NCBI GenBank assembly: GCA_018656555.1
Contig: JABHZQ010000020.1
Location: forward strand, 10,764 to 74,763
Source: an archaeon
GTDB lineage: Archaea; Nanobdellota; Nanobdellia; SCGC-AAA011-G17; GW2011-AR17
DNA: 64,000 bases
Direction: 5' to 3'
A program made the position numbers and the translations under genes. The notes under the pieces are model-generated. The model was not told the origin of the DNA. It ran no database searches and saw nothing but the letters and a program-made list of their open reading frames with translations. Positions 606 to 56,804 of the stretch are shown here, one piece after another (positions within the stretch are counted from its first letter, which is position 1; each line of letters starts with the position of its first letter).

Positions 606-689
606 TATGAAACAATAGCGTCCTTTCTAGTATATGTTTTGGTTAAAAAAGAAAAAAATAATGAAAACCATACACAGGCAGAGTTTAAA

Positions 690-3600
690 ATAGATTAAAC
701 TATTGGAAACTGCATGCTGAATACCTCGCCGAAGCTTGGTACTTACACACCAGTCCCATCAAACCCCTGTTTTGGGGGTGTTTTAGGTCTCTTTTTGCGG
801 TGTCTTTCGTGCTTAGATGCTTTCAGCACTTATGACTTGCTGCGTAGCTGCCCTGCCTGCCTTATCAGACAACAGGTACACCAGAGGCAACGAACCTCTG
901 TTCCTCTCGTACTAAGAGATCCTTCCACTCAGACCTTTGACATCTCCAGTAGATATCATACAAACTGTCTCGCAACGTTCTTAACCCAGCTCACGAACCG
1001 CTTTAACCGGTGAACACCCGTACCCTTGGGCGCTTCTGCACGCCCAGGATGCGATGAGCCGACAACGAAGTAGCAAGCCGCGCCGTCGCTTTGGGCGCTT
1101 AGGCGCGACAACTCAGTTATCCCCAGGATAGCTTTTCTGTCATACTCGGCCCCCATCAAGGAGGACACGAGGGTTCGCTAGACCAATCTTTCGATGCTGC
1201 ATTTCTTGCTTTTCAAAATACAGTCAGGCAAGCTTTTGCTCTTGCACTCTCCTCCGGATTTCTGAACCGGATGAGCTTACCTTTGGGCCCAATTGATATC
1301 TTTTCAACTGGGTGCCGCCCCAGCCAAACTGTCTACCAACTGCTGTCCTTTCTTTCAAAAGTGAGTGTTGCAAAATGCAAAGGGTGGTGTCTCATTGTCG
1401 TCTATTCCTGATCTGGCGACCAGAACATAACAACTACCACCTACACTGCACAATGTATCTCACAACACAACAATAAGCTACAGTAAAGTTCCATGGGGTC
1501 TTCGCTTCCCACTGGAGATCTCTGGACTTCACACCAGAATGTAATGTTCGGGGGCATCTAGTTTGGGACAATAGGGACCTCGTTACGCCATTCATGCAGG
1601 TCGTCATTTAAACGACAAGGCATTTAGCTACCTTAAGAGAATTATAGTTATTCCCGCCGTTTACCTGCTCTTAGCTCCCTTGGAAAGGAGTTTGAAGTAC
1701 AGGCACTGGGCAGACGTCACAAACTATACACACCATTGCTGGCTAGCAGTTTGTTAGGTTTTTGTTAAACAGTCGGGTCCCCCTTGTAATTGCACCCTGT
1801 AATCGCATTCATATGAATACAATCGCAGGGACCCCTTATACCAAAGAGACGGGGCTAAACTGTCGAATTCCCTAAACTAGGTTAAACCCTCAGACCTTGA
1901 GCTTCTCACCCTGAGACACCAGTGCTGGTTCTAGGTATAGTTACTCTCGATTCTTCCATTTTCCCTTTTCACGGACTCCAGATATCAATCCAACAGACAC
2001 AAGGCCTGCTCATTATAGATTTAATCTATTTCTCACCATTATGGTACTCCATAGATTTATTCTATTTAACAATCACGATGATGATTGTGGGTCTATTCCG
2101 AAGTGTTAGAAATATGGCTTGCGTTGCCGCACGTACAAGAGTAGTACAGGAATATTAACCTGTTTCCCTTTCCCAAAAGTCCAGTTAGGATTTTGGTTAG
2201 GACTAACTAACTCTCAGCTGATCTACATTGCTGAGAAACCCTTGCTCTTTCGGTCCTAGAGATTCTCACTCTAAATAGCTCCTACTTTTACCAGGATTCT
2301 CATCTCGACTCGGTTCAGCAACATTCACATATTGCCTTTTTCCCAAGCAGAGCGCCTACCTACCCCACTCCATCCTCGAGGATGGGTGGCTATAGTATCG
2401 GTAACTGATTTAGCCCCGTCCATTTTCAGGGCATGTGACCTTGACAGGTGAGCTGTTACGCTTTCTTTAAAGGATGGCTGCTTCTAAGCCAACCTCCCCG
2501 CTGTCTGTGGTGACAAACACCTTTCGCCCTTTAACACTTAACCAGTACTTAGGGACCTTAACTATAGTGAGGGCTGTTCCCCTCTAGCAACACAAGTTTA
2601 CCCCGGTGCCGCCGTTTCCAGACTTCTACGATGTTAAGGCATTTGGAGTTGGACAAGAAGGTGAAGGATTTCTCCCCCGGGCCCTCAAATCCGTAGCTCT
2701 ACCTCCTCAACTATCTCAGTCCAGACTAGACTTAGGCCTATTTCGGTAGGAACCAGCTATTACCGGGCTCGATTGGCTTTTCACCCCTAGCCGCAGATTA
2801 TAAGAACGTATGCACACAGCAACTCTTCAGGCCTCCACCATCCATACAGACGGCTTCACCTTACCCACGGCTAGATCGCCCGGTTTCGGGTAGTACTCTA
2901 GTGACTTCTGGCATTTTCATACCATTCTCCTTGCAAGCTGCGAGAAATTGGTTTCCCTGCGAGTACATCCTTGAAAGATTTACTCTTGCCACTAAAGCAC
3001 ACTCCCTGGCTCGTTATTCGAAACGCACGATACAACTCCTAAAAGCTGTATCTTACTGTAACCATTAGATTTCAGGCTCTTTTAACTCTCTATCACGAGT
3101 TCTTTTCAACGTTCCCTCACGGTACTATTCGCTATCGGATTCAAGACATATTTAGAGTTGGAAGTTGATGTCTCCCAAATTCGTGCACAATATCAAATGT
3201 GCCTTACTCTAGATACTATCACTCCTTGTAGAACTTCTCTAAGGGGCTATCACCCTCTTTGGCACTCCTTTCCAGGAGACTTTGAGTATTCTACTTAAGG
3301 TATAAAAGATAGTCTTAACACCACATTTCCATAACATTTCTGTTAAGGATTCAGTTTGCTCTATTCCGTTTTCTCTCGCTGATATTCACGGAATCTCAAT
3401 TGATTTCTTTTCCTCTAGGTACTGAGACGCTTCAATTCCCTAGGTTCCTCGCCCTCTCGGACTTAATGAGAAGTCTCATTCGGGGATCTTTGGTTCAAAG
3501 GCTGCATGCGCCTAGCCAAAGCTTTTCGTTGCTTGCCACGCCCTTCATCAGTGTCTTGAACCAAGTCCTCCATCTAATGGTGTAGTAGCTATTTAAACTC
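690..3600 (-). rRNA. rrl: 23S ribosomal RNA, ends approximate (about +/-30 nt)
   Basis: The plus strand carries reverse complements of 23S landmarks: gcttagatgctttcagc (811-827), the sarcin-ricin loop AGTACGAGAGGAAC (about 890-915), and the 5' region GATGAAGGGCGTGGCAAGC (3520-3560). Length is about 2.9 kb. Confidence 0.85.
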
Positions 3601-3737
3601 TGCCTATGTACGGTATCATTGAATATGATATTTTATTCACCAAGGTTCTAACCTGATGATACCCTTCACACATGATACTACATCAAGTGTTGCATTTGGT
3701 ATTTGATTATATGAACTCGCACTCTGTATGAGTCCAA

Positions 3738-3811
3738 TGGACTCGTCGGGATTCGAACCCGAGGCCCCCTCCTTGCAAGGGAGGTGCTCTACCAGACTGA
3801 GCTACGAGCCC
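3738..3811 (-). tRNA. tRNA-Ala(UGC) in the 16S-23S spacer, no encoded CCA
   Basis: Reverse complement reads GGGCTCGTAGCTCAG...CCTTGCAAGG...GGTTCGAATCCCGACGAGTCCA, with a G3:U70 pair, anticodon-loop CTTGCAA and T-loop TTCGAAT. Confidence 0.9.
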
Positions 3812-3866
3812 ACGACTGAATGTGTATGGGCATTTGAGTATGTAGTGATTGCAATTATAAAAAAAA

Positions 3867-5349
<1,483 letters not shown>

Positions 5350-5652: not shown

Positions 5653-6102
5653 TCAAGATATGCATTTAAGAAGATTATAGAAAGGTTCATTTATTGAGAT
5701 TTGAAAATATTCCTCGAGAGGAATTGAGAGGTACTTATTATTTACTAAAAATCTTTTAAATTGAATTGCTTTACTTGCGGGCATGCAATACCAAGTTGAA
5801 TAATGTACTTGATTATTTGAGATAATGTACCACACTTGCATGTTAAAATATTTTTGAAGGTTGTTGTATTTTATTATTTCTTTGTAATCTAAACAAATCT
5901 TTTTATGTTTCTTTAATGGGGTTGTGTCTTTGATATCAATTAGTATAGAACCAAAGTTTGGAATTAGAATAAAGAAGTCTGGTCTTTTTGTGTTAAATTG
6001 TTTTAATGTTTTTGAATATGTTTCTAAATCTTGTTGGATAAACCAAAATGGAATGTTGTGTTTGTTGAGGTAGGATTGGAATTGTTGTTCTGCTTTGTTC
6101 AT
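5653..6102 (-). CDS. PD-(D/E)xK-type nuclease-like protein (NERD-like)
   Basis: 149 aa; the motif RPDFFILIPNFGSILIDIKD fits the PD...(D/E)xK signature. Confidence 0.4.
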   Translation of the reverse strand: MNKAEQQFQSYLNKHNIPFWFIQQDLETYSKTLKQFNTKRPDFFILIPNFGSILIDIKDTTPLKKHKKICLDYKEIIKYNNLQKYFNMQVWYIISNNQVHYSTWYCMPASKAIQFKRFLVNNKYLSIPLEEYFQISINEPFYNLLKCIS

Positions 6103-6199
6103 AATTATTTTATTGTTGTTGTTTTATTAAGAGTTGTTGAAGGAATGTTGTAAGATTTTCAGAAAAAGGTTTATAAATTTCGGATGCTGTTGAATAATT

Positions 6200-7183
6200 A
6201 TGAATGAGTTGTTTAAACATTATAATCTTGGTACTTATTTGAGACATAAAGAGATTGATGAAGGGGTTGAGAATAGTAATTTTAAAGTTAGAACTACAAA
6301 GGGTTGGTATTTTGTAAAAAAGTATGCTAGTAAGTTTAAGCCAGGTTATATTCGACGAGTGAATCAAGTGTTGGTGGAAATTGGAAGGTCTGATTTACCA
6401 GTTGCTCCACCTTTCTTTACTAAGGATGGAGATAGTTTGGTTGTTTTGGATGATGGAGTGTATTGTGTTTATCCCTTTATTGAAGGTGAGCCTTACTTTT
6501 TAGATGAGACTTTTACTCATGATCCTGTAAAACATTTGAATGCAGCAAAGGTGTTGGCTAAGTTGCATAAGAAGGTTGTAAGTTTGCCTCCGCGTATGAG
6601 AAATAGATTTTCTTTTGATAAGGTTAAAGAGATAAAATCTTTATGGGGTAAGTTTTTGGTTGAGATTGAGAAGAAGGATATGAGATATGGTTGGGAGAAT
6701 AAACTTGTTGATCTTATTTATTACATTAGGGATTTGTTTTTAGGGATGGAACAAGAGTTTAAGAAATTGAAAGGTGGGGGTGGTTCTTTGTTGCATGGAG
6801 ATTATCATGCTTTTCAGTTGAAGTTTACTAATAAAGAAGTTGCGGCTGTATTGGATTTTGATCTTATGGAGTTTGGCCCGGTTGAATATGATGTTACAAG
6901 TAGTTCTATGTCTTTTGTTCGTGATTATTGGAGTTATGATTTGAAAAGAATGAAAGAATTTATTGATGCTTATATGGAAGTTAATGGTGAGTTGGATTTA
7001 GATGCAGAGAAAATAATTCTTTGGTTGATGTTTGCAACAATTGATACTATTTGTTTTTATGTTAGATTGATTTATGAGAAGAACACAGAGAAAAATTGGG
7101 AGATGTTGTATTATCATATGAATGGTTTGAAGTGGATTATGGAACACCAAGCTGAGTTTTATGATGTTTTTCAAAAGCATTAA
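6200..7183 (+). CDS. phosphotransferase-family kinase (APH/choline-kinase-like)
   Basis: 327 aa; catalytic-loop-like LLHGDYHAFQ and the metal-binding DFDLMEFGP motif typical of the APH/CotS family. Confidence 0.65.
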   Translation: MNELFKHYNLGTYLRHKEIDEGVENSNFKVRTTKGWYFVKKYASKFKPGYIRRVNQVLVEIGRSDLPVAPPFFTKDGDSLVVLDDGVYCVYPFIEGEPYFLDETFTHDPVKHLNAAKVLAKLHKKVVSLPPRMRNRFSFDKVKEIKSLWGKFLVEIEKKDMRYGWENKLVDLIYYIRDLFLGMEQEFKKLKGGGGSLLHGDYHAFQLKFTNKEVAAVLDFDLMEFGPVEYDVTSSSMSFVRDYWSYDLKRMKEFIDAYMEVNGELDLDAEKIILWLMFATIDTICFYVRLIYEKNTEKNWEMLYYHMNGLKWIMEHQAEFYDVFQKH

Positions 7184-7208
7184 AAAGTTTGTTGTTGTAG
7201 ATTAAGTT

Positions 7209-7757
7209 ATGAAGATTCATTTTAAGAAACCTAAACTTTCTGTTATTTTTGGGGTTGTTGGTTTTTTACTTGTAGTGATATTATTTTCTTCTACTATTGG
7301 AAGATCTTGGTTTTATGGTCAGCATCCAAGTCTTTTGTATTTGTATATATTGAACTTTGCAGGGTATTTGTTTTTCCTTGTTATGCCAGTTGAAGCTTTA
7401 GTTCCTTATTATATGTCCCTAGGTTATAATGGATTTCTTATTGGTGTGATTGTTATGGTAACTGCAATTTTAGCTCAGATGGTAGATTATTCAATTGGTT
7501 ATTTGTTACCTGATAGGGCTATTGAGAATATGATTGGTACGCGTAAATATGAAAAATTTACTAATTTAGTTGAGAAGTATGGTTCTTATGTAATCTTTCT
7601 TTTTAATTTGTTTCCTATTTCTTCTCCTATTGTTGTTTTGATCGCAGGGATGGAGAAGGTTGATTTTATGAAAACAATGAAATTGTGTTTCTTTGGTTTG
7701 TTTGTTAAATATACTTTTTGGATTTTAGGAACTTATTGGGTTTTGGGTTTGTTTTAA
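7209..7757 (+). CDS. DedA/VTT-domain-like membrane protein
   Basis: 182 aa, multiple TM segments, a Gly-rich C-terminal motif (LIAGM) resembling DedA. Confidence 0.4.
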   Translation: MKIHFKKPKLSVIFGVVGFLLVVILFSSTIGRSWFYGQHPSLLYLYILNFAGYLFFLVMPVEALVPYYMSLGYNGFLIGVIVMVTAILAQMVDYSIGYLLPDRAIENMIGTRKYEKFTNLVEKYGSYVIFLFNLFPISSPIVVLIAGMEKVDFMKTMKLCFFGLFVKYTFWILGTYWVLGLF

Positions 7758-7792
7758 GAAGTTTTTTATAGTATTAATGTCTGGTAGTTATT

Positions 7793-8545
7793 ATGAAAAT
7801 TGTTACTTTGTTGTTTATACTTTTTTTAGGGATTACAGGGAATACTGTTTCTGATGATCCTTTTAGTGGTGGAGTTCCTGATTCTGAAATTGAGTGTATG
7901 GAGAATTGTATTGGGGAGTATTGTACAATTGGTGATGTTGAATGTGCTGAGCCTTATACTGATGGATGTATGGATGAGTGTGGGGCTGTTATGCCTGAGC
8001 AAACTGAAGATGAACAGTGTGTTCAAGAGTGTTTGTATTCTAATTGTGGAGAGTTTGATTGGGATTGTCAAGATTCTGTAATTGCTGAGTGTGATGTTGA
8101 ATGTGGAATGTTGGGCGATGCACCAGATTGGGATGGCTTAAGTGAAGAAGAGCAGTGTATAACCCTTTGTGTTGCTGATATTGATCCTACTTTAATTTGT
8201 GGTGCTTCAAGTGAAGGAGAAACTGGGAATGAGATTTGTCAACAATGTGCAGAGGACTGTGTGTATTTATATGAAGGGCCCTGTTTGATGGATGAAGAGC
8301 TAACTGTGAAGGAAAATGATTGTGTTACTTGTGAACACTGTTATGGCTCACCTGTGATGGGAGATTCTGGTGAGGGTTATGAATGTATTGTGGATATAGA
8401 ATGTTTAGATGCTTCTGATGAGTTTGGTGATGATGCTGGTTCAGGACCTGGAATTGGTCAAGAAGGTTATGTTCCTGTTGAAGAAGAGAGTCCTAGTACT
8501 TTTATTAGTGGGGTTGTTGATTTTTTTAAGGGAATATTTAAATAG
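7793..8545 (+). CDS. secreted, highly acidic cysteine-rich protein
   Basis: Signal peptide MKIVTLLFILFLGITGNTVS; about 40 Cys organised as repeated E-C-x3-C units (ECMENC, QCVQEC, AECDVEC, QQCAEDC and others); very D/E rich. Confidence 0.6.
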   Translation: MKIVTLLFILFLGITGNTVSDDPFSGGVPDSEIECMENCIGEYCTIGDVECAEPYTDGCMDECGAVMPEQTEDEQCVQECLYSNCGEFDWDCQDSVIAECDVECGMLGDAPDWDGLSEEEQCITLCVADIDPTLICGASSEGETGNEICQQCAEDCVYLYEGPCLMDEELTVKENDCVTCEHCYGSPVMGDSGEGYECIVDIECLDASDEFGDDAGSGPGIGQEGYVPVEEESPSTFISGVVDFFKGIFK

Positions 8546-8566
8546 ATTATAGTTATCATTTATTTT

Positions 8567-9538
8567 ATGTTTAGAATTAAGACTAAAGATTTGGAAGTTT
8601 ATGAGAAGAAATGGGGGAGATGGGTTAAGGTTGATAAATTTCAGAGTGTTCTGAAGATTGTTAAACAGTTTAAGTTTTTTGGGAATTTGGATTTGTTAGT
8701 TGATAAGAAAAATCCAAAGTTTTTGAAGATGAGTAGAATTAATGTTCTTCCAGATGGTAGGAAGTTGGATAAGGCTTATTCTTTGTTTGCTGATGATTTG
8801 GTTGTTCATGGTGAGATTAATGATGATCATTGGGATGTTATGTTTAGGAATAAAAGTGGGAGTTACTCTTATGTTTATACTCTTGAGAAAAAGGAGAAGT
8901 TTGCTAAGAGGAAATATATTAAGGTTAGAAATTTTGAGAAGTATTATCCTAGGTTAAAGAGAAATGTGTTGAAAGGGTTAAGGAGTAATGAAGATTTTTC
9001 TTTAGAAATGTATACTTTGTTAAAAACTTGTATGAGAGTGGGTAATGGAGTTTATTATAATCTGTATAAACACAAAGGTTTGAGTACTTTAGAGAAAAGT
9101 GATATTTCAATTAAGGGGAGGGTGGTTAGTTTTAATTTTATTGGTAAAGATGGAGTTCCTATTTCTATTTCTGAAAGATTTCCAAAAAGTTATATTTTGG
9201 CACTTAGAAAGAGATTAAGGAAAAGTAAGTCTTTTGTGTTTACTTGTAATGGTCGATTTTTGTATGAAAGAGATTTTAAAAATGCATTTAGAAAGTATTG
9301 TGGGAAGGAGTTCTATCCTCATATTGTTCGTTCTTATTATGCTACAGTTGAAGCTAAGAAGTTATTGAAGAAAAGGAAGATTTCTAAGAAAGAGGCTAAT
9401 GATTTGTTTATGTCTATTGCTTCTAAGTTGGGGCATAAGAGATGTGTAAAAGGGGAGTGGAAGGATAACTTTACTGTTACTGTGAATCATTATATAGATC
9501 CTGCTATTGTTGAAAGGATTAAGAAGAGGATTAAATAA
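8567..9538 (+). CDS. DNA topoisomerase IB
   Basis: 323 aa; HIVRSYYATVEA matches the eukaryotic/poxviral FRTYNASITL segment, and the C-terminal TVNHYIDPAIV matches the catalytic SKLNYLDPRI tyrosine motif. Codon usage is host-like. Confidence 0.7.
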   Translation: MFRIKTKDLEVYEKKWGRWVKVDKFQSVLKIVKQFKFFGNLDLLVDKKNPKFLKMSRINVLPDGRKLDKAYSLFADDLVVHGEINDDHWDVMFRNKSGSYSYVYTLEKKEKFAKRKYIKVRNFEKYYPRLKRNVLKGLRSNEDFSLEMYTLLKTCMRVGNGVYYNLYKHKGLSTLEKSDISIKGRVVSFNFIGKDGVPISISERFPKSYILALRKRLRKSKSFVFTCNGRFLYERDFKNAFRKYCGKEFYPHIVRSYYATVEAKKLLKKRKISKKEANDLFMSIASKLGHKRCVKGEWKDNFTVTVNHYIDPAIVERIKKRIK

Positions 9539-10154
9539 ATTCTAAAATTTCTTCAGCAGAATTGATGATTTTGTCTGCTTTTGAAAGATCTTGTTTTTTT
9601 GTATGTTTATTAGGAAGAGCAAAACATTTCATTCCAGCTGCTTTTGCTGACTCTACTCCAACCTGTGAATCTTCAATTACTAAACACTCTTTTGGATTGA
9701 TGTTGAGTTTTTTAGCAGTTACTAGATATGGTTCAGGGGAAGGTTTTCTGTTTTTGTAATCTTCAGAAGTAACAATAACCTCAAATATATTATCTAATTT
9801 TGCTAATTTTAATACTTGGGAAGTACTTCTTTTAGATGAAGAAGTGGTTAAGGCTAAAGGTATTTTCCTATTATGTAGTTCTTTTATTAAAGAAATTGTT
9901 TTTTTGAATAAAGGAGTTGTTTTTATTAGTTCATGATATTCTTTTTTTTGTATTTTTTTGAATTCTTCATAGGAGAACTTGTATTTTTTTAGGAAGGATT
10001 TTTTGAAATCATCTGGGTGTCTTCCAATGATCCATTCTTTCTCTTCTTCTTTTATTTTTATTCCTAATTCTTTGAAAGCTTTGACTGTTGAATCTATATT
10101 TGTAGATTCTGAATCTATGATTATTCCATCTCTGTCAAATATGACTGCTTTCAT
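9531..10154 (-). CDS. HAD-superfamily hydrolase (beta-phosphoglucomutase-like phosphatase)
   Basis: N-terminal MKAVIFDRDGIIIDSE (DxDG motif I), followed by a C-terminal CLVIEDSQVGVESAKAAG segment. Confidence 0.8.
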   Translation of the reverse strand: MKAVIFDRDGIIIDSESTNIDSTVKAFKELGIKIKEEEKEWIIGRHPDDFKKSFLKKYKFSYEEFKKIQKKEYHELIKTTPLFKKTISLIKELHNRKIPLALTTSSSKRSTSQVLKLAKLDNIFEVIVTSEDYKNRKPSPEPYLVTAKKLNINPKECLVIEDSQVGVESAKAAGMKCFALPNKHTKKQDLSKADKIINSAEEILEFI

Positions 10155-10205
10155 TATGTTTTGAAAGATAAGGCAGTATAAAAGAATAACTGCCCTGCCA
10201 GGTAA

Positions 10206-10781
10206 CTAAAAAATTCTATTATCATTATTTTTTGCTCTTTCTACAAGTAATTTAACTCTTCTAGTTCTAGTCTCCTCTCGTTTACCCCTTAAAATCCATC
10301 TGAAAGCCATCTTTTTTACTGAAGGTGTGAATTTTTCAAAATTCTCTCTAGCCTTCTTATTCTTCCCTAAGGCATTTTTCAATTCAATAGGTATATTGGG
10401 GTTTTTGGGAATTCCAAAATCGTGTGTTGGTTTTTTAAGGCCCTCTTTGTAATATTGTAATCCAGAAGGAGCCATCTTACCTTGTTTAATCAAATCTTTA
10501 GCATATTGAATTGTATTATTACTCCATTTACTATTCTTGTTTCTTTTACAAAAAGTTCTTATGTACCTATCTTCGTCCAACTTTTTTATGGTGGTATCAA
10601 TCCAACCAAAACAAATCGCTTCCTCCATCAATTCTTTATGTGAGGGAGATGGTTTGCCTGTGTGTTTTTTATAGACTATAACTTCTATTTTAGTTTCGTG
10701 ATTGTGATTCTCGGCTAACCAATCTCTAAAATCATCTCTAGTAAGCACAGTTATTTGTTTCATTGTAATTAAGGAATACAA
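10206..10781 (-). CDS. YdeI/OmpD-associated family protein
   Basis: 191 aa; AICFGWIDT...and the C-terminal KREETRTRRV motif resemble the YdeI-like family. Confidence 0.55.
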   Translation of the reverse strand: MYSLITMKQITVLTRDDFRDWLAENHNHETKIEVIVYKKHTGKPSPSHKELMEEAICFGWIDTTIKKLDEDRYIRTFCKRNKNSKWSNNTIQYAKDLIKQGKMAPSGLQYYKEGLKKPTHDFGIPKNPNIPIELKNALGKNKKARENFEKFTPSVKKMAFRWILRGKREETRTRRVKLLVERAKNNDNRIF

Positions 10782-10827
10782 GTTTTTTATTAAAGATTGG
10801 TATATTCATGAAAATTGTAAGAAAAAC

Positions 10828-10902
10828 TGCCCCCGCCGGGATTTGAACCCGGGTCTTCACCTCGAAAGGGTGAAATGATTGACCGTGCTACACCACAGGG
10901 GC
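10828..10902 (-). tRNA. tRNA-Glu(UUC), no encoded CCA
   Basis: Reverse complement GCCCCTGTGGTGTAGC...TCACC-CTTTCGA-GGTGA...CCGGGTTCAAATCCCGG-CGGGGGC-A. Closely matches canonical archaeal tRNA-Glu. Confidence 0.85.
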
Positions 10903-10957
10903 ATATGTCTTTGGAAAATTATTGTCTTTATAATATTTTCGGATTGAAGGACTAGCC

Positions 10958-11281
10958 TTAAACCCATCTAAATATAAAAAATAAACCAAAAAGACCTGGA
11001 ATGATATACAAAATTGGATTGTTAACTCCTACAATTAAAAATAAAATGGCTAAAACTATTCCTACAAAACCCACAATCCAAAGATCTTTTGGTTGTTTTT
11101 TAGTAATTTTTGTGTAGATATTGTAAATTAAGTAGCCAATTAAGATAAAGAAACATAAAATTGAGAGAATAAAAAAGATTGCATCTTCAAACTTAAATAT
11201 AGCATAGAAGAAATTGTGTAATACTGTTGAAATTATTGAGATTGAAAATAATAACCAAATTATTCTTAATTGTCGGCTCAT
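10958..11281 (-). CDS. small integral membrane protein
   Basis: 107 aa with three or four hydrophobic helices. Confidence 0.45.
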   Translation of the reverse strand: MSRQLRIIWLLFSISIISTVLHNFFYAIFKFEDAIFFILSILCFFILIGYLIYNIYTKITKKQPKDLWIVGFVGIVLAILFLIVGVNNPILYIIPGLFGLFFIFRWV

Positions 11282-11375
11282 GTTTTATTGGGATGATTAA
11301 AATTATTTAATCTTTTGTATTATAAAATTAGTATATAGCAAATATTTATAAATAATTAAAGTAGCTATCTACTTA

Positions 11376-12059
11376 ATGAGTAAAATTATTGAATTAAAAG
11401 AGGTGTGGAAGACTTATATCATGGGAGAAGTTCCGGTTCATGCTTTAAGAGGAATTAATTTAACTGTGAGAAAAGGGGAGTTTGTTTCTATTCAAGGTCC
11501 TTCTGGTTCTGGGAAGAGTACGGCTATGTTTTTGGTAGGTTGTTTAGATCTGCCAACAAAAGGACATGTTTTTTTAGATAATAAAGATATTTCCAATTTG
11601 GATGAATCAGACCTTGCTCAGATTAGAGGGAAGAAGATAGGGTTTGTATTTCAGAGATTTAATTTGTTAAATACTTTAACAGCTATGCAGAATGTTCAAA
11701 TTCCTATGATGTTCCAAGGAGTTAGTGAAGATAAAAGAATTAAAAGGGCAGAAATGTTGTTAACTAGGGTGGGACTGGGTGAGAGGAGGTTTCACAAACC
11801 TACTGAGTTGTCTGGTGGAGAAATGCAGAGAGTTGCAATTGCTAGAGCTTTGGCAAATGATCCGGAAGTTATATTAGCTGATGAACCTACTGGTAATCTA
11901 GATTCAAAAACTGGAAAAGAGGTAATGCAGTTGTTAATTGATTTACATAAAAAAGAAAAAAGAACTATAATTATGGTCACACATGATAAAAATGTTGCAA
12001 ACTTGGCTGAAAGACAAATCTTTTTGAAAGATGGTCAAGTTGTAAAAGGAGGGAAGTAA
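11376..12059 (+). CDS. ABC transporter ATP-binding protein (MacB/LolD-like)
   Basis: Walker A GPSGSGKST, signature LSGGEMQRVAIARAL, Walker B ILADEPTGNLD. Confidence 0.9.
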   Translation: MSKIIELKEVWKTYIMGEVPVHALRGINLTVRKGEFVSIQGPSGSGKSTAMFLVGCLDLPTKGHVFLDNKDISNLDESDLAQIRGKKIGFVFQRFNLLNTLTAMQNVQIPMMFQGVSEDKRIKRAEMLLTRVGLGERRFHKPTELSGGEMQRVAIARALANDPEVILADEPTGNLDSKTGKEVMQLLIDLHKKEKRTIIMVTHDKNVANLAERQIFLKDGQVVKGGK

Positions 12060-12060
12060 A

Positions 12061-13290
12061 ATGAAAAAAATATTATTTATTGTGATGATTTTATTGATGG
12101 TAGGTAGTGTATCTGCTGTACAAACAGTTATAACAAAAACAGAGGAGTTTAGACTGGATTTGGTTAAGTATGATCCTTCACCAGTTCAACCTGGAGAGAC
12201 TTCTGATTTGCATTTTGAAATAACTAATTTACAAGATGAAATAGTAAATGATTTGGAATTTACTATTGTTGAAACCTTCCCCTTCTTTTTAGACGAATTT
12301 TTAGAGAATACTATTGAAATTGATAGTTTGGCTTCTGGAGAAATGGTTGAGTTTGTTGTCCCTATAAGTGTTAATGCAAATGTGGATGATGGGTTTTATA
12401 GTTTTAGTTTAGACTATTATTCCGAGGTACAGAATGCAAGAGTGAGTGAAGATTTTACAATTTATGTTCAGAGGGTTAATAGGATTGTTTCTGCAACAAG
12501 TATTGCTGTTGAGAGTTCAGGTGTTGAAAATATTCCTGGAATTTTGGAACCTGGGGAAATAGGTAAGATGAATGTTGTTGTTGAGAATTCTGCAGGATAT
12601 ACTATGGAAGATGTTTCTATTAAACTGTTATTAAATGCAAGTAGTGTGCCTTTTGCTCCTATTGGTTCTACTGCTGAGAAACATGTTGCTTCTATTGGTT
12701 CTGGCGATTATGAAAATGTAGTGTTTGATATTATTGCATTACCTGATGCAGATGCTGGAGTGTATAAAGTTTCATTTGAAATACAGTACTATGATGAATT
12801 AGGAAATTTATACGTTAGAAATGATTTGATTGGAATGGTTATTGGTAGTGTTCCTGAGTTTCATCTTGAAATAAAAGAGAGTGAGATAAAAGGAAGAGGT
12901 GGAACTGGTGATGTAACTTTGAATATTGTGAATACTGGCTTATCACAAGTTAAGTTTATGACTATTCAATTAGAAGAGAGTGAGGATTATGAGATTCTTT
13001 CGGAGGATATTCTTTATTTGGGAGATATTGATTCTGATGATGATGAATCAGCTACTTTCTTGTTAGATTTGAGAACATTAAGTGATAATGTTGAATTGCC
13101 TATAACTTTAAGTTTTAGAGATTCAAATAACCAGAGATATGAACAGAGCTTTACACCAGAGTTTACAATATATAATCTTGGTAATGGCGCATTAAGTGTT
13201 GGTTGGATTGTATCTATTGTTATAGTGTTGGCTGTTATAGGAATAATATTTAGGAAAAGGTTGAAAAAACTCTTTAAGAAAAAAAGATGA
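12061..13290 (+). CDS. exported protein with C-terminal TM anchor (ABC-operon associated)
   Basis: N-terminal signal sequence, C-terminal hydrophobic anchor plus KKRLKKLFKKKR; its stop overlaps the next gene (ATGA). Confidence 0.55.
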   Translation: MKKILFIVMILLMVGSVSAVQTVITKTEEFRLDLVKYDPSPVQPGETSDLHFEITNLQDEIVNDLEFTIVETFPFFLDEFLENTIEIDSLASGEMVEFVVPISVNANVDDGFYSFSLDYYSEVQNARVSEDFTIYVQRVNRIVSATSIAVESSGVENIPGILEPGEIGKMNVVVENSAGYTMEDVSIKLLLNASSVPFAPIGSTAEKHVASIGSGDYENVVFDIIALPDADAGVYKVSFEIQYYDELGNLYVRNDLIGMVIGSVPEFHLEIKESEIKGRGGTGDVTLNIVNTGLSQVKFMTIQLEESEDYEILSEDILYLGDIDSDDDESATFLLDLRTLSDNVELPITLSFRDSNNQRYEQSFTPEFTIYNLGNGALSVGWIVSIVIVLAVIGIIFRKRLKKLFKKKR

Positions 13291-14510
13291 TTAAGGATTA
13301 TGCTAAGTTAGCTTTAAGGAGTATTGTAACTAGAAAACTAAGAAGTTGGTTAACTGTAATTGGTATTTTTATTGGTATTGCAACTGTTGTTGCTTTGATT
13401 GCAGTTGGTCAAGGTATGGAGAAGGCTATAACTGAGCAGTTTGAAGAGTTAGGTACAGATAAAATAGTGATTAGTGCTGGTGGTGATGCAGCAGGTAGTG
13501 CTTTTGCAGCAGGGTTAGCCTCGAATCCAATAACTTATGATGACTTAGATGCTGTACAAGGGGTCAGAGGGGTTGATGTTGCAGCAGGAATGATTTCTAG
13601 ATTAGCTTTAGTAGAGTTTGATGATGAAACTAAAACAACTTGGGTTAGTGGATTTCCTACAGATGAAACTGCTAAAGTTGTTGAAGATATTCAATCTTTT
13701 GAGATATTAGAAGGAAGAGATATAGAAGCAGGTGATACTTATTCTGCAGTTGTAGGATATAATCTTTATATGGATGATTTTTTTGAAAAGCCTGTAGAGG
13801 CAAGAGACAAAATTTTCATTGAAGGAATTAAATTTAAAGTTGTAGGGGTTGTTGATAAGATTGGTAATGCTCAAGATGATACTCAAATTATAATTCCTAT
13901 TGATACAGCTAAGGAGATATTTGATACTGGTGATGATATTTATGGGATAATGGTGAAGATTGATGATGGTGAAGAGCCAAGTGTTGTTGCTGAGAGAATT
14001 GAGGAAGAGTTGAGAGATTTTAGAGATGAAGATGAAGGTGCTGAAAGTTTTCAAGTACAAACTTTTGAACAGATTTTAGAACAGGTTGGTGTTGTGTTGA
14101 ATATTATTAGTGCTGTGTTAATTGGTATTGCTGCTATTTCACTTTTAGTTGGTGGGGTTGGGATTATGAATACTATGTATACTGCTGTACTTGAAAGAAC
14201 CAAAGAGATTGGTATTATGAAATCTATTGGTGGAAGGAACAGTGATATTATGATGATATTTTTATTGGAGTCGGGGATGTATGGTTTGGTTGGTGGTGGT
14301 GTAGGTGTAATAGTTGGTGCTTTAATGAGTTTAATTGTTTCTAAGGTTGCAGGTGTTGCTTTAGGTATTGATTATTTTCAAGCAGATATAACTTGGTGGT
14401 TAATAGTTGGTGCTTTAACATTTTCTTTTGTTGTAGGAGTATTATCTGGAGTATTACCAGCTAAACAAGCTTCTAAAATGCAGCCAGTTGATGCACTTCG
14501 TTATGAATAA
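13287..14510 (+). CDS. ABC transporter permease, FtsX/MacB type
   Basis: 407 aa; N-terminal TM, large periplasmic domain, three C-terminal TMs with the FtsX-like motif MKSIGGRN. Confidence 0.8.
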   Translation: MIKDYAKLALRSIVTRKLRSWLTVIGIFIGIATVVALIAVGQGMEKAITEQFEELGTDKIVISAGGDAAGSAFAAGLASNPITYDDLDAVQGVRGVDVAAGMISRLALVEFDDETKTTWVSGFPTDETAKVVEDIQSFEILEGRDIEAGDTYSAVVGYNLYMDDFFEKPVEARDKIFIEGIKFKVVGVVDKIGNAQDDTQIIIPIDTAKEIFDTGDDIYGIMVKIDDGEEPSVVAERIEEELRDFRDEDEGAESFQVQTFEQILEQVGVVLNIISAVLIGIAAISLLVGGVGIMNTMYTAVLERTKEIGIMKSIGGRNSDIMMIFLLESGMYGLVGGGVGVIVGALMSLIVSKVAGVALGIDYFQADITWWLIVGALTFSFVVGVLSGVLPAKQASKMQPVDALRYE

Positions 14511-14542
14511 AATTTTTAAAGGGAAGATTTCTTTTTTTATTT

Positions 14543-14920
14543 ATGGGATTGAAGGATGATGTTTTTGGGGCTTTTGTGAGGGCTAATGAGTTGCAGAGAG
14601 TTCCTGAATTTTCGAAGGCAGGTAGAGATGATCCTCTTTATGTTAAAGATGAAGTTCCTGCTAGAAGAAGTGAGATTGAGAGAACAATTGGCTTTGCTGG
14701 GTTTGTTGATGGATATCAGGGAAGAGAAGAAAGATTTAGGGGACCAAGAGGAAGTCTTGAAGCTGCTAGAACTGGAGGTGTAGATGGAATTCTTGATAGG
14801 TTGGCTGAATTTTCTCCTGATGGAGAAGAAATTGCAAGGGGATATAGAGAAATGGTAGGAGATCCTAGTGAGGCTTATGCTAAACAGTATAGAAGAGGTC
14901 TAGCTGCTTCTAAATTATGA
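14543..14920 (+). CDS. hypothetical protein
   Basis: 125-aa ORF, Arg/Gly/Glu-rich, no recognised motif. Confidence 0.35.
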   Translation: MGLKDDVFGAFVRANELQRVPEFSKAGRDDPLYVKDEVPARRSEIERTIGFAGFVDGYQGREERFRGPRGSLEAARTGGVDGILDRLAEFSPDGEEIARGYREMVGDPSEAYAKQYRRGLAASKL

Positions 14921-14977
14921 AAAGATTTTTAATTTTTTTAGGATAACTTTTTTAAATGTTGGTTCTAGTGATGTATT

Positions 14978-15652
14978 ATGGACATTTCTGAAAGAAATAA
15001 GAAAGTAGCTTTAGCTAGGTGGGAAAATTGCTTTATAAAACAAAGAGAGAGAATAAAGAAAGATCCTTCTAGTTTGATTAAGAAAGCAATTATTTGTGGT
15101 TTCCTTGCTGGTGATGGCAATATACAAATAAGGAGAGATTCTTCTAATTATGAGATAAGATTTTTTCCAGATGATGCCTATATGCTACAAGTTTATTGTG
15201 AATTAATGGAAGAATTATATGATAAATGTCCTTCTGTTTTTATTGAGAAAGGATCTTTTAATGCTAGGTTGACTTCAAAAGTGATTGTTGAGGATATTAT
15301 TTCTTATTCTAATTTTGGATTAGAAAAGTGGGATTTACCTGAGGAATTATTTTTAATTCCAAATGCTAAAGAATATTGGATAAGTGCTTTCTTTTCAGGA
15401 GAGGCATATGTTGGAAAAAATCATATTAAGGTTCAAACAATAAATAAAAGTGGGATGGAAAAACTTTCTAATTTGTTATTTGATTGTGGAATAAATCATA
15501 AATTTTATCAATATTGTCCTAAAAGGAGTAATCATTCTATAGTTTATATTATTTGCATATTGAAGAAGAAAGATCGAAAGTTATTTTATGACAAAATTGG
15601 TTTTTTTCATAGAGAAAAGACTATTAAGTTACAGAAATCGTTAAATTTATAA
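14978..15652 (+). CDS. LAGLIDADG homing endonuclease (free-standing, double-motif)
   Basis: Motif 1 ICGFLAGDGNI and motif 2 ISAFFSGEAYV; 224 aa. Confidence 0.75.
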   Translation: MDISERNKKVALARWENCFIKQRERIKKDPSSLIKKAIICGFLAGDGNIQIRRDSSNYEIRFFPDDAYMLQVYCELMEELYDKCPSVFIEKGSFNARLTSKVIVEDIISYSNFGLEKWDLPEELFLIPNAKEYWISAFFSGEAYVGKNHIKVQTINKSGMEKLSNLLFDCGINHKFYQYCPKRSNHSIVYIICILKKKDRKLFYDKIGFFHREKTIKLQKSLNL

Positions 15653-15677
15653 AATACCTTGTAATCTGACTCTTTAT

Positions 15678-15814
15678 GCCGAGGTGGCACAATCTGGTAC
15701 TGCGCAGATTGTCTTTCTAGGTTGAAAGATAAGTGTAAGCCTGGAAAGAAGTTCTTTTCAAGACTAGATAGCCTGTTTCCTTTGGATATCTGGGTTCGAA
15801 TCCCAGCCTCGGCG
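15678..15814 (+). tRNA. intron-containing tRNA, isotype unresolved by eye
   Basis: Acceptor GCCGAGG/CCTCGGC with discriminator G; D-loop AATCTGGTA; T-arm CTGGG-TTCGAAT-CCCAG. About 137 nt, implying an intron of about 60 nt. No encoded CCA. The 3' end is the att core of the integrated element. Confidence 0.6.
15801..15814. repeat. attL core (tRNA 3' end)
   Basis: tcccagcctcggcg; the extended match also covers the preceding gggttcgaa. Confidence 0.7.
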
Positions 15815-15840
15815 TAATACCTTTATGGCGTCTATCTTGA

Positions 15841-16575
15841 CTATTTCTTCTTAGCCTCCTTGTTTTTGTTTATCTTTGGTTTTTTCTTTTTCCTCCAATC
15901 TGATACTATTTTATCTTTTTTTGCAATCAGTTGGTCTCTTTCTTTTTTTAATTCCTTAGGAATTTCAAATTGTTCATTATATTCTTTATTTGCCCTTCTT
16001 AATTTTGATTCTTCCTCTTTCATTTCTTTATATTCCTTTGTTTTTGTCATTTTTAAGAATGCAGAGGATTTCTTTACCTTGTTTAACTTTGTTCTGAATT
16101 TCTTTTCGTAACTTACCTTTTTCCTACCTAATTTTTTAAGTTCTGGAGAACTTTTTACCATATCTGTGGCTTTATTCCTTATGTTAATCAATTCTGTGTC
16201 TATTTTGGCTAATTCTTCAAGTTTTATAATATCCTTTTTGTTTTTTATTAATGGAATTTTTTTCCAATTTGTTCTTGCGTTTATTCTTAGACCTTCTTTT
16301 GTTGCATAGTATTTCCAATCACTATCTTTTTTGAGCCTTGCGCCCTTTAAATGATGTAAATTTAGCCTGAACTGAACTTCTCCAACTTTTTCATCTTCTG
16401 GTTTTCTTAATATAATCTGATTTTCATCTGCCTTAACTAATAGTTCCATTGTAACCTCATCTTGAGTAGGATTTTTAACCCATTGTAAAGCTCTAAGCCA
16501 CTCTATAGGAACATATACAAAGAACTTTTGCTTTCCCTCATGCCGTCCTTTGTTTTTATATTTCTTCATAACCAT
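15841..16575 (-). CDS. lysine-rich protein, possible AbrB/MazE-like N-terminal DNA-binding domain
   Basis: 244 aa; the N-terminus FFVYVPIEWLRAL...ILRKPED resembles a swapped-hairpin fold; long KE-rich coiled tail. Confidence 0.35.
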   Translation of the reverse strand: MVMKKYKNKGRHEGKQKFFVYVPIEWLRALQWVKNPTQDEVTMELLVKADENQIILRKPEDEKVGEVQFRLNLHHLKGARLKKDSDWKYYATKEGLRINARTNWKKIPLIKNKKDIIKLEELAKIDTELINIRNKATDMVKSSPELKKLGRKKVSYEKKFRTKLNKVKKSSAFLKMTKTKEYKEMKEEESKLRRANKEYNEQFEIPKELKKERDQLIAKKDKIVSDWRKKKKPKINKNKEAKKK

Positions 16576-16577
16576 CT

Positions 16578-16630
16578 TGTAATGTATAAAGCATTACAGC
16601 TATATAAACCTTTCTATTAGGGTATACCCT
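16578..16630. promoter_or_regulatory. divergent control region with palindromic operators
   Basis: Inverted repeat tgtaatg-tataaag-cattaca (16578-16598); perfect 12-bp palindrome agggtataccct (16619-16630); TATA-like tatataaa and ctataaaat serving the two divergent genes. Confidence 0.45.
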
Positions 16631-16684
16631 TTCAAAAAGGGCACACCCCATATTTTAACTATAAAATGTCACATTATATGCACT

Positions 16685-16843
16685 ATGAAAAAAGAAACAT
16701 ACTTGCAGTTTAGAACAACTGAGGATGAAAAGGAATTAATCCTTAACAATATGAGGAAGCAGAGATTTAGAAGTTTTTCTGAATGGGCAAGAATTGTTCT
16801 TATGAATTGTGAGGTAGAAGATGAAACTAACACAATTGGATGA
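16685..16843 (+). CDS. ribbon-helix-helix (CopG-like) regulator, 52 aa (absent from the ORF track)
   Basis: MKKETYLQFRTTEDEKELILNNMRKQRFRSFSEWARIVLMNCE...: a beta strand followed by two helices; TATA about 20 nt upstream. Confidence 0.45.
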   Translation: MKKETYLQFRTTEDEKELILNNMRKQRFRSFSEWARIVLMNCEVEDETNTIG

Positions 16844-16924
16844 AAATATTGAAAAGAGCTTTTCTCCTGAAATCAGGAAGATTAGAGAGTTCTATTTCAA
16901 AAAAATTATAGGAGGAAATGAAAA

Positions 16925-17185
16925 ATGGTAGCAGCAACAATAACAAGGACAATCGAGACAGCACAACCAAAATGTGAAATAGTAGTATTGACTGTATCAG
17001 ATGGAGAATCTTATCGGAGTAGAAAATTCGAGAATATTCAATCAGCTCATGTTTCTTCAAACAAAGTTAGTGCAGTTTTAACATCAGTACCATCTGTTGA
17101 ATATAATACTTCATCAGCCGTTGTGACAGTGCACTGGTCAGAACAAACAGATCAATTAGCAACATTAGTCCTTTGGGGCAATTAA
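16925..17185 (+). CDS. hypothetical protein (element)
   Basis: 86 aa; SD-like GGAGGA 10 nt upstream; beta-rich and T/S/V-rich. Confidence 0.45.
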   Translation: MVAATITRTIETAQPKCEIVVLTVSDGESYRSRKFENIQSAHVSSNKVSAVLTSVPSVEYNTSSAVVTVHWSEQTDQLATLVLWGN

Positions 17186-17239
17186 GACATATACAAAAGA
17201 GATAATTGGTGTGGCTGAGAAGTCACAAGGAAATAAATT

Positions 17240-17650
17240 ATGAAAGAAATAAAGAAAACAGATTGGATAACCTTTGAGAAAGACAAACATGGTATTCAAT
17301 TAAGAGAAGCACATGAAATTCTTGGTGTATCTACACCTTGCCAAATTGAATTAGAGCAAAAAGGCAAATACAAAGTTGTTAGAAGAGGGATTAAACAAGA
17401 AAAGATTCCTATGTATATTCGAGCAACATTGGTTGCTTCTAATTTTAACAATGATAAACTCTGTGGGATGTATCTATGTTATGGAAATTCCCCAATGATG
17501 TGGATACAGACCAATGAGTTTACTAAATTCAGGTTGAGTGATGATAAACCTGAACACAAAACACCTGTCTATCTTGGGCATTTGGTGTATAAATGTTCTG
17601 CAAAGCAGAAGGGAGATAAAAATGAAGAAAAAGGAAATACCACAAGTTAA
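17240..17650 (+). CDS. hypothetical protein, possible excisionase-like HTH
   Basis: 136 aa; IQLREAHEILGVSTPCQIELEQKG looks HTH-like. Confidence 0.35.
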   Translation: MKEIKKTDWITFEKDKHGIQLREAHEILGVSTPCQIELEQKGKYKVVRRGIKQEKIPMYIRATLVASNFNNDKLCGMYLCYGNSPMMWIQTNEFTKFRLSDDKPEHKTPVYLGHLVYKCSAKQKGDKNEEKGNTTS

Positions 17651-17858
17651 GGCATTTATTGACGAAGACTATAATCAAATTACATTCTGGTGTTGTTTCT
17701 GCCAAACATGGCATCGTCATGGACAAGGTTATGGACACAGAGGTGCTCATTGTCATTTTCATAGCCCTATGAGAGATTATGAACTAATAGGATATACTGA
17801 CAAGGAACTGAAAAAGATTCTAAGAATGGTGAAGGAGCAGTTGGGTATTGTAAAATGA
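17622..17858 (+). CDS. Cys/His-rich putative zinc-binding small protein
   Basis: Probable start at ATG 17622 (the ORF track extends to 17538); CCFCQTWHRHGQGYGHRGAHCHFH. Confidence 0.4.
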   Translation: MKKKEIPQVKAFIDEDYNQITFWCCFCQTWHRHGQGYGHRGAHCHFHSPMRDYELIGYTDKELKKILRMVKEQLGIVK

Positions 17859-19588: not shown

Positions 19589-19723
19589 TTTACAGTAAAC
19601 TAAGTGAGTAAACTACGTAAACTAAGGCTATAGTTTTGTAATCAGTAAAAACACAAACTAACTAACTGAAAGTTAGTTTGTTTACTGATTTACTATAGGG
19701 GACAAACTAAACTAAGACTTTGT
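19589..19723. repeat. iteron-like repeat cluster (putative origin or regulatory region)
   Basis: Three GTAAACTA(A/C)G copies (starting 19595, 19608, 19617) plus an inverted AGTTTAC; perfect 11-bp inverted repeat acaaactaact...agttagtttgt (19653-19681). Confidence 0.45.
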
Positions 19724-20185
19724 ATGATAATAGAGAAAATGGGGGAATTTCCAAGTAAAAAGCATCAGTTCAAAGCTGGTAAAAAGCACCAAATTACTGC
19801 AAAAGAGGCAGGAGCAATAGGAGGACGTGTTAAATCGCAGAAGAAGAACATTGCTCAGAAGTTTAGATGGTTAAAGCAGAAAGGGATTACAGATGAGAAC
19901 TTTGAAGAGTTAGTTCAATGGGTACAAGACAGAGAATATTCTATAATGTATACTTGTGAGTATCTCAAGAAAGCTCAAGATAGTTGCAAAACAACAAGTG
20001 AGAAGATAGCATTAGCTAAGGCATACATGCAGTTAATAGAGCTAAATCATGGCAAGAAGAACATAAATTTGAATTTAGATGTGACAAAAGAATGGAGCTC
20101 TCTAAAAGAGTTCTTAGAAGAAAATACAATATCTGTGGAGGCAGAACAAGATGAAAAAATACATAACAAAGAAGGTAATGAATGA
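19724..20185 (+). CDS. hypothetical protein (position consistent with a terminase small subunit)
   Basis: 153 aa, basic N-terminus, immediately upstream of TerL. Called on position only. Confidence 0.3.
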   Translation: MIIEKMGEFPSKKHQFKAGKKHQITAKEAGAIGGRVKSQKKNIAQKFRWLKQKGITDENFEELVQWVQDREYSIMYTCEYLKKAQDSCKTTSEKIALAKAYMQLIELNHGKKNINLNLDVTKEWSSLKEFLEENTISVEAEQDEKIHNKEGNE

Positions 20186-20612: not shown

Positions 20613-20698
20613 TCTTGTAGAAATATTGCTATTTTTTTGACAGGGGGGATTTGAACATCTCCTCCTCTTTGGCCTCCTTAGATTAATTATACGGTTGT

Positions 20699-56753: not shown

Positions 56754-56804
56754 GGGTTTTGGTAATTAGGATAGGTTTAAAAAGTGATCTAAATCAATGA
56801 TATT

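Follow-up and report, generated by a model that had tools for sequence, protein, structure and literature searches.

The window analysed here, a stretch of 64,000 nucleotides from an archaeal contig (JABHZQ010000020.1, assembly GCA_018656555.1), contains an open reading frame (ORF) at 8567..9538 whose product, judging by sequence comparison and a structural model, is very probably an active type IB DNA topoisomerase (TopIB), encoded in the chromosome of a Woesearchaeota-type DPANN archaeon. Profile, structural and active-site evidence bears out the type IB call of an earlier first-pass annotation of this DNA, and supports the placement of the predicted protein as a genuine TopIB of the minimal size class. 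Its length of 323 aa, which that annotation had likened to the minimal enzymes, is indeed close to that of vaccinia TopIB (314 aa) and of the D. radiodurans chain (346 aa). The enzyme chemistry is expected to be conventional and the advance incremental, concerning distribution and evolution, with no new mechanism. The translation of the gene contains the peptide strings YPHIVRSYYATVEA and VNHYIDPAIVERI.

8567..9538, plus strand: TopIB gene, 323 codons plus TAA, ATG start, product of 323 aa, a listed ORF

Identification by profile and fold

Pfam searches assigned aa 109-300 of the protein to Topoisom_I (PF01028; E=3e-13, 50.1 bits, cut-off 23.7) and returned no other credible match, and the same domain was found in 120/120 listed relatives. 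In a search of PDB sequences, the single protein retrieved the TopIB of Caldiarchaeum subterraneum (CsTOP1, 6Z01) at 3e-7 and that of D. radiodurans (2F4Q) at 6e-5. A profile built from 30 relatives reached 4e-15 for CsTOP1, its top PDB match with 58.6 bits, 1e-11 for the D. radiodurans enzyme and 6e-8 for the variola and vaccinia enzymes, and added Leishmania TopIB.

The AlphaFold2 model, computed from the alignment of the 30 relatives, has a mean predicted local distance difference test score (pLDDT) of 92.6 and a predicted template modelling score (pTM) of 0.79. When it was compared with the PDB by Foldseek, the top 22 matches were all type IB topoisomerases of bacterial, human, archaeal or poxviral origin with E values of ~1e-11, the best being 3M4A (D. 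radiodurans TopIB), and the XerH tyrosine recombinases came next at ~1e-3, which is ~10^8-fold worse. The model superposes best on closed DNA-bound TopIBs, with a root-mean-square deviation (rmsd) of 3.3-4.3 A, as against 11-13.5 A for open apo forms. In the viral structure library BFVD, phage and giant-virus topoisomerases ranked at the top and integrases after them. The first-pass annotation had stated that assignment to a tyrosine recombinase family by a profile search would overturn its call; no profile places the protein there, and Phage_integrase (PF00589) is absent from it and sub-threshold in its relatives.

Active site

The pentad R157/K194/R255/H290/Y309 occurs in the canonical order and shares alignment columns with the catalytic residues of human TOP1 and vaccinia TopIB. 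The family-profile alignment further puts R157, K194, R255 and H290 on R269, K306, R367 and H410 of CsTOP1, which have been named as the catalytic tetrad of that enzyme, with Tyr477 as the nucleophile (Takahashi et al. 2022, PMC8748870).

9035..9037, plus strand: Arg157 (MRVGN), pentad position 1; human R488, vaccinia R130, CsTOP1 R269
9146..9148, plus strand: Lys194 (IGKDGV), pentad position 2; human K532, vaccinia K167, CsTOP1 K306
9320..9331, plus strand: His252-Ile-Val-Arg255, with Arg255 as pentad position 3; human R590, vaccinia R223, CsTOP1 R367
9434..9436, plus strand: His290 (LGHKR), pentad position 4; human H632, vaccinia H265, CsTOP1 H410
9491..9493, plus strand: Tyr309 (NHYIDP), nucleophile by alignment; human Y723, vaccinia Y274

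Two alignments carry these correspondences, one of 111 sequences (16 members of the family, a diverse set of 90 representatives, and references) and one of the C-terminal region of 92 sequences, built specially to place the tyrosine. The vaccinia TopIB and human TOP1(202-765) references were checked against PDB chains: the former is identical to 1VCC and 1A41 over residues 1-77 and 81-314 and matches variola 2H7F at residues 78-80, while the latter is identical to 1A31. Plasmid records supplied two further references, a Sphingobium TopIB annotated as such at NCBI and a homologue from Cupriavidus. The columns of R157, G171, K194 and R255 are invariant in 111/111 TopIBs, and that of H290 holds His or Asn. 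The Y309 column is occupied by Tyr in 16/16 family members and 74/76 other sequences of the C-terminal alignment. Across the family, the R-K-R-H-Y pentad is present in 120 of 121 members, the remaining one having His in place of Tyr. Outside the pentad, a G-L-(S/T)-T-L motif that is TopIB-specific is conserved after Arg157, and Y102 aligns with Tyr207, the clamp-closing residue of CsTOP1.

The motif pairings proposed in the first-pass annotation hold in these alignments. Its IVRSYYAT, matched there with FRTYNAS, brings R255 into the column of human R590 and vaccinia R223 among the 111 TopIBs, and its NHYIDP, matched with SKLNYLDPRI, brings Y309 into the column of human Y723 and vaccinia Y274 among the 92 sequences. 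A failure to align the catalytic pentad had also been named there as grounds for rejection; the full R/K/R/H/Y set was aligned. Two other routes to the tyrosine were abandoned. A profile of the C-terminal 50 residues gave chance matches against PDB sequences (E>=0.09), and hmmalign, hmmsearch and hhalign against single vaccinia or human sequences reached R and K, or R, K and R.

Domain layout and family-specific features

The protein can be divided into an extension, a beta-rich N-terminal domain and a catalytic domain, the last of which carries an insert between the catalytic His and Tyr.

8567..8716, plus strand: N-terminal extension, aa 1-50, three strands and a helix, family-specific
8717..8881, plus strand: beta-rich N-terminal (capping) domain, aa 51-105, holding Tyr102
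8870..8872, plus strand: Tyr102, conserved clamp/hinge residue, aligned with CsTOP1 Tyr207
8882..9535, plus strand: catalytic domain, aa 106-323, with Topoisom_I at aa 109-300
9437..9475, plus strand: His-Tyr insert, aa 291-303, predicted beta-hairpin

For the extension (aa 1-50), searches gave no Pfam match, no significant structural match and no detectable relative. The protein has no match to PF02919 (Topoisom_I_N), and none to PF21338 (Top1B_N_bact) even at E<=10. In the family-profile alignment, aa ~55-105 show a weak match to the N-domain region of Sphingobium TopIB, a bacterial enzyme with a PF21338 score of 94 bits, and tblastn aligned aa 56-202 to bacterial TopIB with ~27-29% identity over 140 aa. 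Two features of the catalytic domain set the family apart. The His-to-Tyr spacing is 19-21 residues in the family (19 from H290 to Y309 in the window protein) versus 9 in poxviral and bacterial TopIBs, the 10-12 extra residues being predicted to form a beta-hairpin. In addition, 119/121 family members have His at the third position ahead of the second Arg, where 87/95 other TopIBs have Lys.

The closest likeness in size and layout is to the bacterial short TopIBs (D. radiodurans 2F4Q/3M4A; Sphingobium, Cupriavidus), which have ~320-370 aa and two domains. The family profile aligns to Sphingobium TopIB from the N domain through LG(H/N) with 56.7 bits, and the nucleophile motif T-V-x-x-x-x-Y-I-x-P is common to the bacterial enzymes and the DPANN family. 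In contrast to the bacterial enzymes, the DPANN protein lacks a Top1B_N_bact match and has the ~50-aa N-terminal extension; the family has His at pentad position 4, where the bacterial enzymes compared have Asn, His instead of Lys at -3 from the second Arg, and the 10-12-aa His-Tyr insert.

CsTOP1 (6Z01; Dahmane 2016, Takahashi 2022) shares with the DPANN protein an archaeal host, the aligned tetrad and hinge Tyr, and His at pentad position 4. However, it comprises 539 aa, has the large capping module Topoisom_I_N and carries a coiled-coil linker of 53 aa ahead of its Tyr, both of which are absent from the DPANN protein, and its H410 and Y477 are 67 residues apart, compared with 19 here. Since cap module and linker are missing, the DPANN protein belongs to the short architectural class and not to that of the 'archaeal TopIB' of the literature.

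The poxvirus TopIBs (vaccinia/variola 1A41, 2H7F, 3IGC) resemble the DPANN protein in their minimal size (314 aa) and in having His at pentad position 4, and their closed-clamp structures superpose on the model with an rmsd of 3.8-4.3 A over ~260 columns. Vaccinia R130 and K167 align by profile, and R223, H265 and Y274 in multiple alignments. They differ in that sequence similarity is limited to ~130 residues, Lys220 stands where the family has His, only 9 residues separate His and Tyr, and the Y-I-x-P motif is absent. The best near-full-length structural matches are jumbo-phage topoisomerases (Achromobacter Motura and Pseudomonas PaBG in BFVD; 298-329 columns, query-normalised template modelling score 0.66-0.69), but these have 541-606 aa with extra domains and an identity of ~19-20%, and tblastn found no match in phage genomes. 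Tyrosine recombinases such as XerH and the integrases of phages and archaeal viruses share the catalytic fold and the R-K-HxxR-H-Y layout; they rank far below TopIBs throughout, and lack the G-L-T-T-L motif, the N-terminal clamp lobe and the hinge tyrosine.

Assessment of the assignment

Several observations weigh against reading this protein as an active TopIB. Its PF01028 score is low (50 bits versus 146 bits for bacterial TopIB), no NCBIfam family matches at E<=10, and NCBI names it 'hypothetical protein'. None of the three Pfam models of TopIB N domains matches the N-terminal 105-108 aa, and a separate model of the N-terminal lobe (pLDDT 85.9) gave no significant neighbour in the PDB. By its sequence, His252 gives the protein a recombinase-like HxxR, and PF00589 reaches 25.2 and 23.1 bits in relatives against a cut-off of 27.1, matches that the HxxR motif would explain. 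A loop of ~10 residues that most relatives have is missing from the window protein. There is no other topoisomerase, whether Topo III, Topo VI or gyrase, among the window ORFs of at least 300 aa, and the literature searched contains no assay of any member of the clade.

Some of these points would also fit a site-specific recombinase or resolvase built on the TopIB fold, acting for example on chromosome dimers or Holliday junctions, in place of a general relaxing enzyme. TopIBs and tyrosine recombinases have a common fold and chemistry, XerH and integrases are the next-best structural matches, and one NCBI record (P0079) names a relative 'tyrosine-type...'. His252, shared by nearly the whole family, occupies the position held by Lys in most other TopIBs, and weak Phage_integrase matches cover the HxxR region in several relatives. 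Those matches nevertheless stay below threshold, and PF00589 has none in the window protein itself; TopIB structures are ahead by ~8 orders of magnitude in E-value, the G-L-(S/T)-T-L motif and the clamp residue Y102 (CsTOP1 Y207) are kept, and the gene stands alone, no partner or adjacent site being conserved beside it. A recombinase is accordingly regarded as quite improbable.

The missing loop, the low profile scores and the family member with His for the nucleophilic Tyr could likewise be read as signs of a degenerate, non-catalytic TopIB relic, for instance one retained for DNA binding only. This is the least probable of the explanations considered, as the complete catalytic pentad is retained here and in 120/121 relatives, at least 23 contigs from several samples encode exactly this sequence, and the model is confidently folded.

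Host and distribution

Among 5.8 billion protein clusters, 555 relatives were found, of which the best 120 have 340-390 aa and are ~50% identical. Nearly all of these 120 are annotated 'hypothetical protein', and where a source is named it is almost always Woesearchaeota, Aenigmatarchaeota, Nanoarchaeota or 'archaeon'. The identical sequence is deposited at NCBI as MBT3985193.1, MBT4396635.1 and MBT4441245.1, each a 'hypothetical protein [archaeon]', while IMG labels the exact sequence 'DNA topoisomerase IB'. The identical gene also recurs in identical context on the 23 or more assembled contigs mentioned above. Relatives are encoded by at least 160 GTDB genomes, counted among species representatives and mostly DPANN-labelled, and these include Pacearchaeota, Iainarchaeum and a closed 1.84-Mb Woesearchaeota chromosome. 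The nearest GTDB relative, 90% identical, lies on contig L001 of a Woesearchaeota metagenome-assembled genome, which is colinear with the window upstream of the gene.

The window has a G+C content of ~31-33% when the rRNA genes are excluded, and genes for PheRS and an archaeal S-adenosylmethionine (SAM) synthetase are located on the same contig as the TopIB gene. The host is a DPANN archaeon, Woesearchaeota-like, in agreement with the non-thaumarchaeal archaeal host that had been proposed at the outset.

Some related loci carry other labels. Contigs L005, L012, L036, L060, L063, L072, L075 and L079 were deposited as Omnitrophota, Campylobacterales or Planctomycetia, with a G+C content of 0.37-0.51, and further loci are labelled 'Methanosarcinales'. 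Pfam searches on the neighbours of these bacterial- and 'Methanosarcinales'-labelled loci were not diagnostic, with the exception of a V/A-type ATPase subunit I on the 'Campylobacterales' contig. The bacteria-labelled contigs are probably mis-binned or mislabelled DPANN contigs.

Class and phylogeny of the family

In a library of 1.84 billion representatives, the family amounts to ~30 clusters at E<=1e-30 within 2769 proteins at E<=1e-3, and a wide gap separates its full-length members (>=270 bits) from the next proteins (<=90 bits). Among the nearest representatives outside the family, a bacterial-type N domain was found in 68/93 and the eukaryotic cap in one. A neighbour-joining tree recovered the family as monophyletic in 40/40 bootstraps, on a stem ~10x the median internal branch. 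Since the outgroup distances in this tree are saturated (1.8-2.9 substitutions per site), monophyly is claimed, and a sister group or direction of transfer is not.

On these comparisons the family is assigned to the short TopIB class, which is bacterial and viral, and not to the long eukaryote-like class of Thaumarchaeota. Within the short class it forms a tight, isolated clade that lies nearest to bacterial TopIBs and whose members are mostly DPANN-labelled.

Published accounts place archaeal TopIB in Thaumarchaeota, Aigarchaeota, Bathyarchaeota and some Asgard lineages (Garnier 2021; Dahmane 2016; Takahashi 2022). The archaeal enzymes in this literature are long and eukaryote-like, and the short form is described only for bacteria and viruses. 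No TopIB is listed for DPANN in Table 1 of Garnier et al. 2021, and no paper tying TopIB to DPANN lineages was found in the literature searched, which omits most subscription journals. The first-pass annotation had regarded archaeal TopIB as reported essentially from Thaumarchaeota only. That rarity stands for the literature, with the other lineages just named added, and falls for the sequence data, in which at least 160 species-level genomes, mostly DPANN-labelled, have a relative and the protein already bears its name in IMG. The family is thus already public in the form of sequences, Pfam matches and an IMG name, and it is its distribution that is absent from the topoisomerase reviews searched.

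These findings describe a second, short form of TopIB that is widespread in another archaeal superphylum. A tentative proposal, less favoured than the identification of the enzyme itself, is that Woese-, Pace-, Aenigmat-, Nano- and Iainarchaeota of the DPANN share a monophyletic and architecturally distinct short TopIB overlooked in the literature. If the family dates to an early DPANN ancestor, archaea would hold two unrelated TopIB architectures, and the view that TopIB is a hallmark of Thaumarchaeota, passed down from the archaeal-eukaryal ancestor, would need revision. The distinguishing marks of this form would be the N-terminal extension, the His-Tyr hairpin and the HxxR motif, the last of which might also place it between TopIB and the tyrosine recombinases. 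The family bears on the origin of TopIB, by vertical descent from an archaeal-eukaryal ancestor or by transfers from bacteria or viruses. It bears equally on supercoiling control in archaea with tiny genomes, many of which are reported to have a bacterial-type gyrase. In practical terms, NCBI annotation misses the family, and a model of its own would put a name to hundreds of 'hypothetical proteins'.

Proposed mechanism and role

The mechanism proposed here follows from the conserved active site, the fold and the established TopIB mechanism. The two-lobed protein, composed of the beta-rich N-terminal lobe and the catalytic domain, would clamp duplex DNA, after which Tyr309 would attack one strand to form a covalent 3'-phosphotyrosyl link. 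Arg157, Arg255 and His290 would stabilise the transition state, and Lys194 would donate a proton to the leaving 5'-O. Once free, the 5'-OH end could rotate in a controlled manner around the intact strand, so that positive or negative supercoils would be relaxed without ATP or Mg2+, and the nick would be resealed after rotation.

In the cell, the predicted enzyme is likely to serve as a general swivelase that relieves the stress of transcription and replication. It could, in addition, offset the action of DNA gyrase, which has been reported in the majority of Woesearchaeota and Pacearchaeota (Villain et al. 2022). The prevalence of gyrase in these two lineages makes plausible a swivelase that balances gyrase and removes supercoils arising from transcription, but because the family is also present in Aenigmatarchaeota, reported to be without gyrase, its role cannot be gyrase-specific.

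Gene neighbourhood and the question of mobility

The TopIB gene closes a run of four plus-strand genes that encode an APH-like kinase, a VTT/DedA membrane protein, a Cys-rich acidic protein and TopIB. It starts 21 nt past the co-directional upstream ORF, and its 3' end shares 8 nt with a convergent ORF for a HAD hydrolase. Further upstream lies an archaeal rRNA operon.

685..3597, minus strand: 23S rRNA, archaeal rRNA operon
3737..3812, minus strand: tRNA-Ala, within the rRNA operon
3868..5338, minus strand: 16S rRNA, archaeal rRNA operon
5656..6102, minus strand: ORF between the rRNA operon and TopIB
6200..7183, plus strand: ORF between the rRNA operon and TopIB
7209..7757, plus strand: ORF between the rRNA operon and TopIB
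7793..8545, plus strand: ORF between the rRNA operon and TopIB, just 5' of TopIB

The gene had been described as next to the rRNA operon. The operon is indeed upstream, but at a distance of 3.2 kb and with four intervening ORFs, so the description applies only loosely. Comparison of 80 related loci showed that the neighbourhoods are not conserved: no neighbour family recurs in more than 11/80 loci, and only L001 shares the neighbours found in the window. As rRNA genes are nearby in 0/80 of these loci, the adjacency is lineage-specific and incidental, and a functional link between TopIB and the rRNA operon was rejected.

The ORF at 7793..8545 encodes a protein of 250 aa with a signal-peptide-like N terminus, strongly acidic and Cys-rich, with repeated C-x-x-C/E-C motifs. 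It gave no match in a Pfam search, and its counterpart on the sister contig L001 is 87% identical.

An integrated virus-like element of 12.65 kb (15801..28456) lies 6.3 kb downstream of the TopIB gene and encodes a terminase, a primase-polymerase, an HNH endonuclease and an integrase, which raises the question of whether the gene is itself cargo of a virus or mobile element, like the poxviral, mimiviral and jumbo-phage TopIBs. This would be in keeping with the phage topoisomerases that are the best structural matches in BFVD, with a G+C content at third codon positions (GC3) ~2 standard deviations above the window mean, and with the segment from TopIB to the ABC transporter, which differs from that of L001. 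The gene is, however, outside the repeat-bounded element, separated from it by housekeeping-type genes, those for a HAD hydrolase, OmdA, tRNA-Glu and a MacB-type ABC transporter. A cellular origin is further favoured by the archaeal rRNA operon and the PheRS and SAM synthetase genes on the contig, and by the recurrence of the gene in this context on at least 23 contigs. Moreover, no family member was found in IMG/VR by a pattern-based scan of limited sensitivity, and tblastn against 50,697 phage genomes gave no family match. The species-level genomes that encode the family, at least 160 in number, do so in non-conserved chromosomal contexts, one of them the closed 1.84-Mb chromosome. Mobile cargo is thus even less probable than the recombinase reading, and the chromosomal context agrees with the earlier remark that the gene is not obviously viral.

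That remark had been based on host-like codon usage, which is only weak evidence. The G+C content of the gene is typical (0.307 versus 0.320±0.026), while its GC3 is high, as given above, and its codon-usage distance is ~1 standard deviation above the mean. Codon usage was discarded as a test of host or foreign origin because it did not tell the integrated element apart either.

On the 3' side of the TopIB gene, 9539..11375 of the window corresponds to 4255..4590 of L001, an indel of 1.8 kb versus 0.3 kb between TopIB and the ABC transporter. L001 is without most of the HAD hydrolase gene, the OmdA/YdeI gene, tRNA-Glu and a small membrane ORF.

The integrated element and other features of the window

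The element is bounded by direct repeats at 15801-15818 and 28439-28456, which share an identical 14-nt core, TCCCAGCCTCGGCG, and agree in 17/18 nt, and it is possibly the provirus of a DPANN archaeon. Its left attachment repeat is the 3' end of a tRNA gene whose anticodon region is interrupted by 79 nt, presumably those of an intron.

15678..15814, plus strand: tRNA gene missed by ARAGORN, Rfam 35.7 bits (gathering score 29)
15801..28456: integrated virus-like element, 12.65 kb, direct-repeat bounded
17855..19588: Prim-Pol/PriCT/AAA_25 replicase, in the element
20699..22060: large terminase, in the element
26047..26955: HNH endonuclease, in the element
27125..28369: tyrosine integrase, in the element, adjoining the right repeat

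Members of a 38-nt repeat family stand 5' of several element genes, at 23388, 24132, 25229 and 25464. Just left of the tRNA gene and the element boundary, a free-standing ORF at 14978..15652 (plus strand) resembles LAGLIDADG_3 homing endonucleases.

About 600 nt past the right repeat of the element, 29063..29956 (plus strand) encodes a complete bacterial-type sigma-70 factor with regions 1.2, 2, 3 and 4. The exact protein is recorded at NCBI as 'sigma-70 family RNA polymerase sigma factor [archaeon]' and has only two close relatives (80% and 69%), followed by bacterial RpoD proteins at ~46%, several of them named Clostridia or Margulisbacteria. Sigma-70 genes have already been reported in Woesearchaeota (Jaffe et al. 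2021, PMC8204110).

Finally, the GC skew in 2-kb windows is very strong, up to +0.48, at 6001..10000, 12001..16000 and 56001..60000. Where the two were compared, its sign seemed to track the coding strand, which suggests purine-rich coding strands in a genome of 31% G+C.

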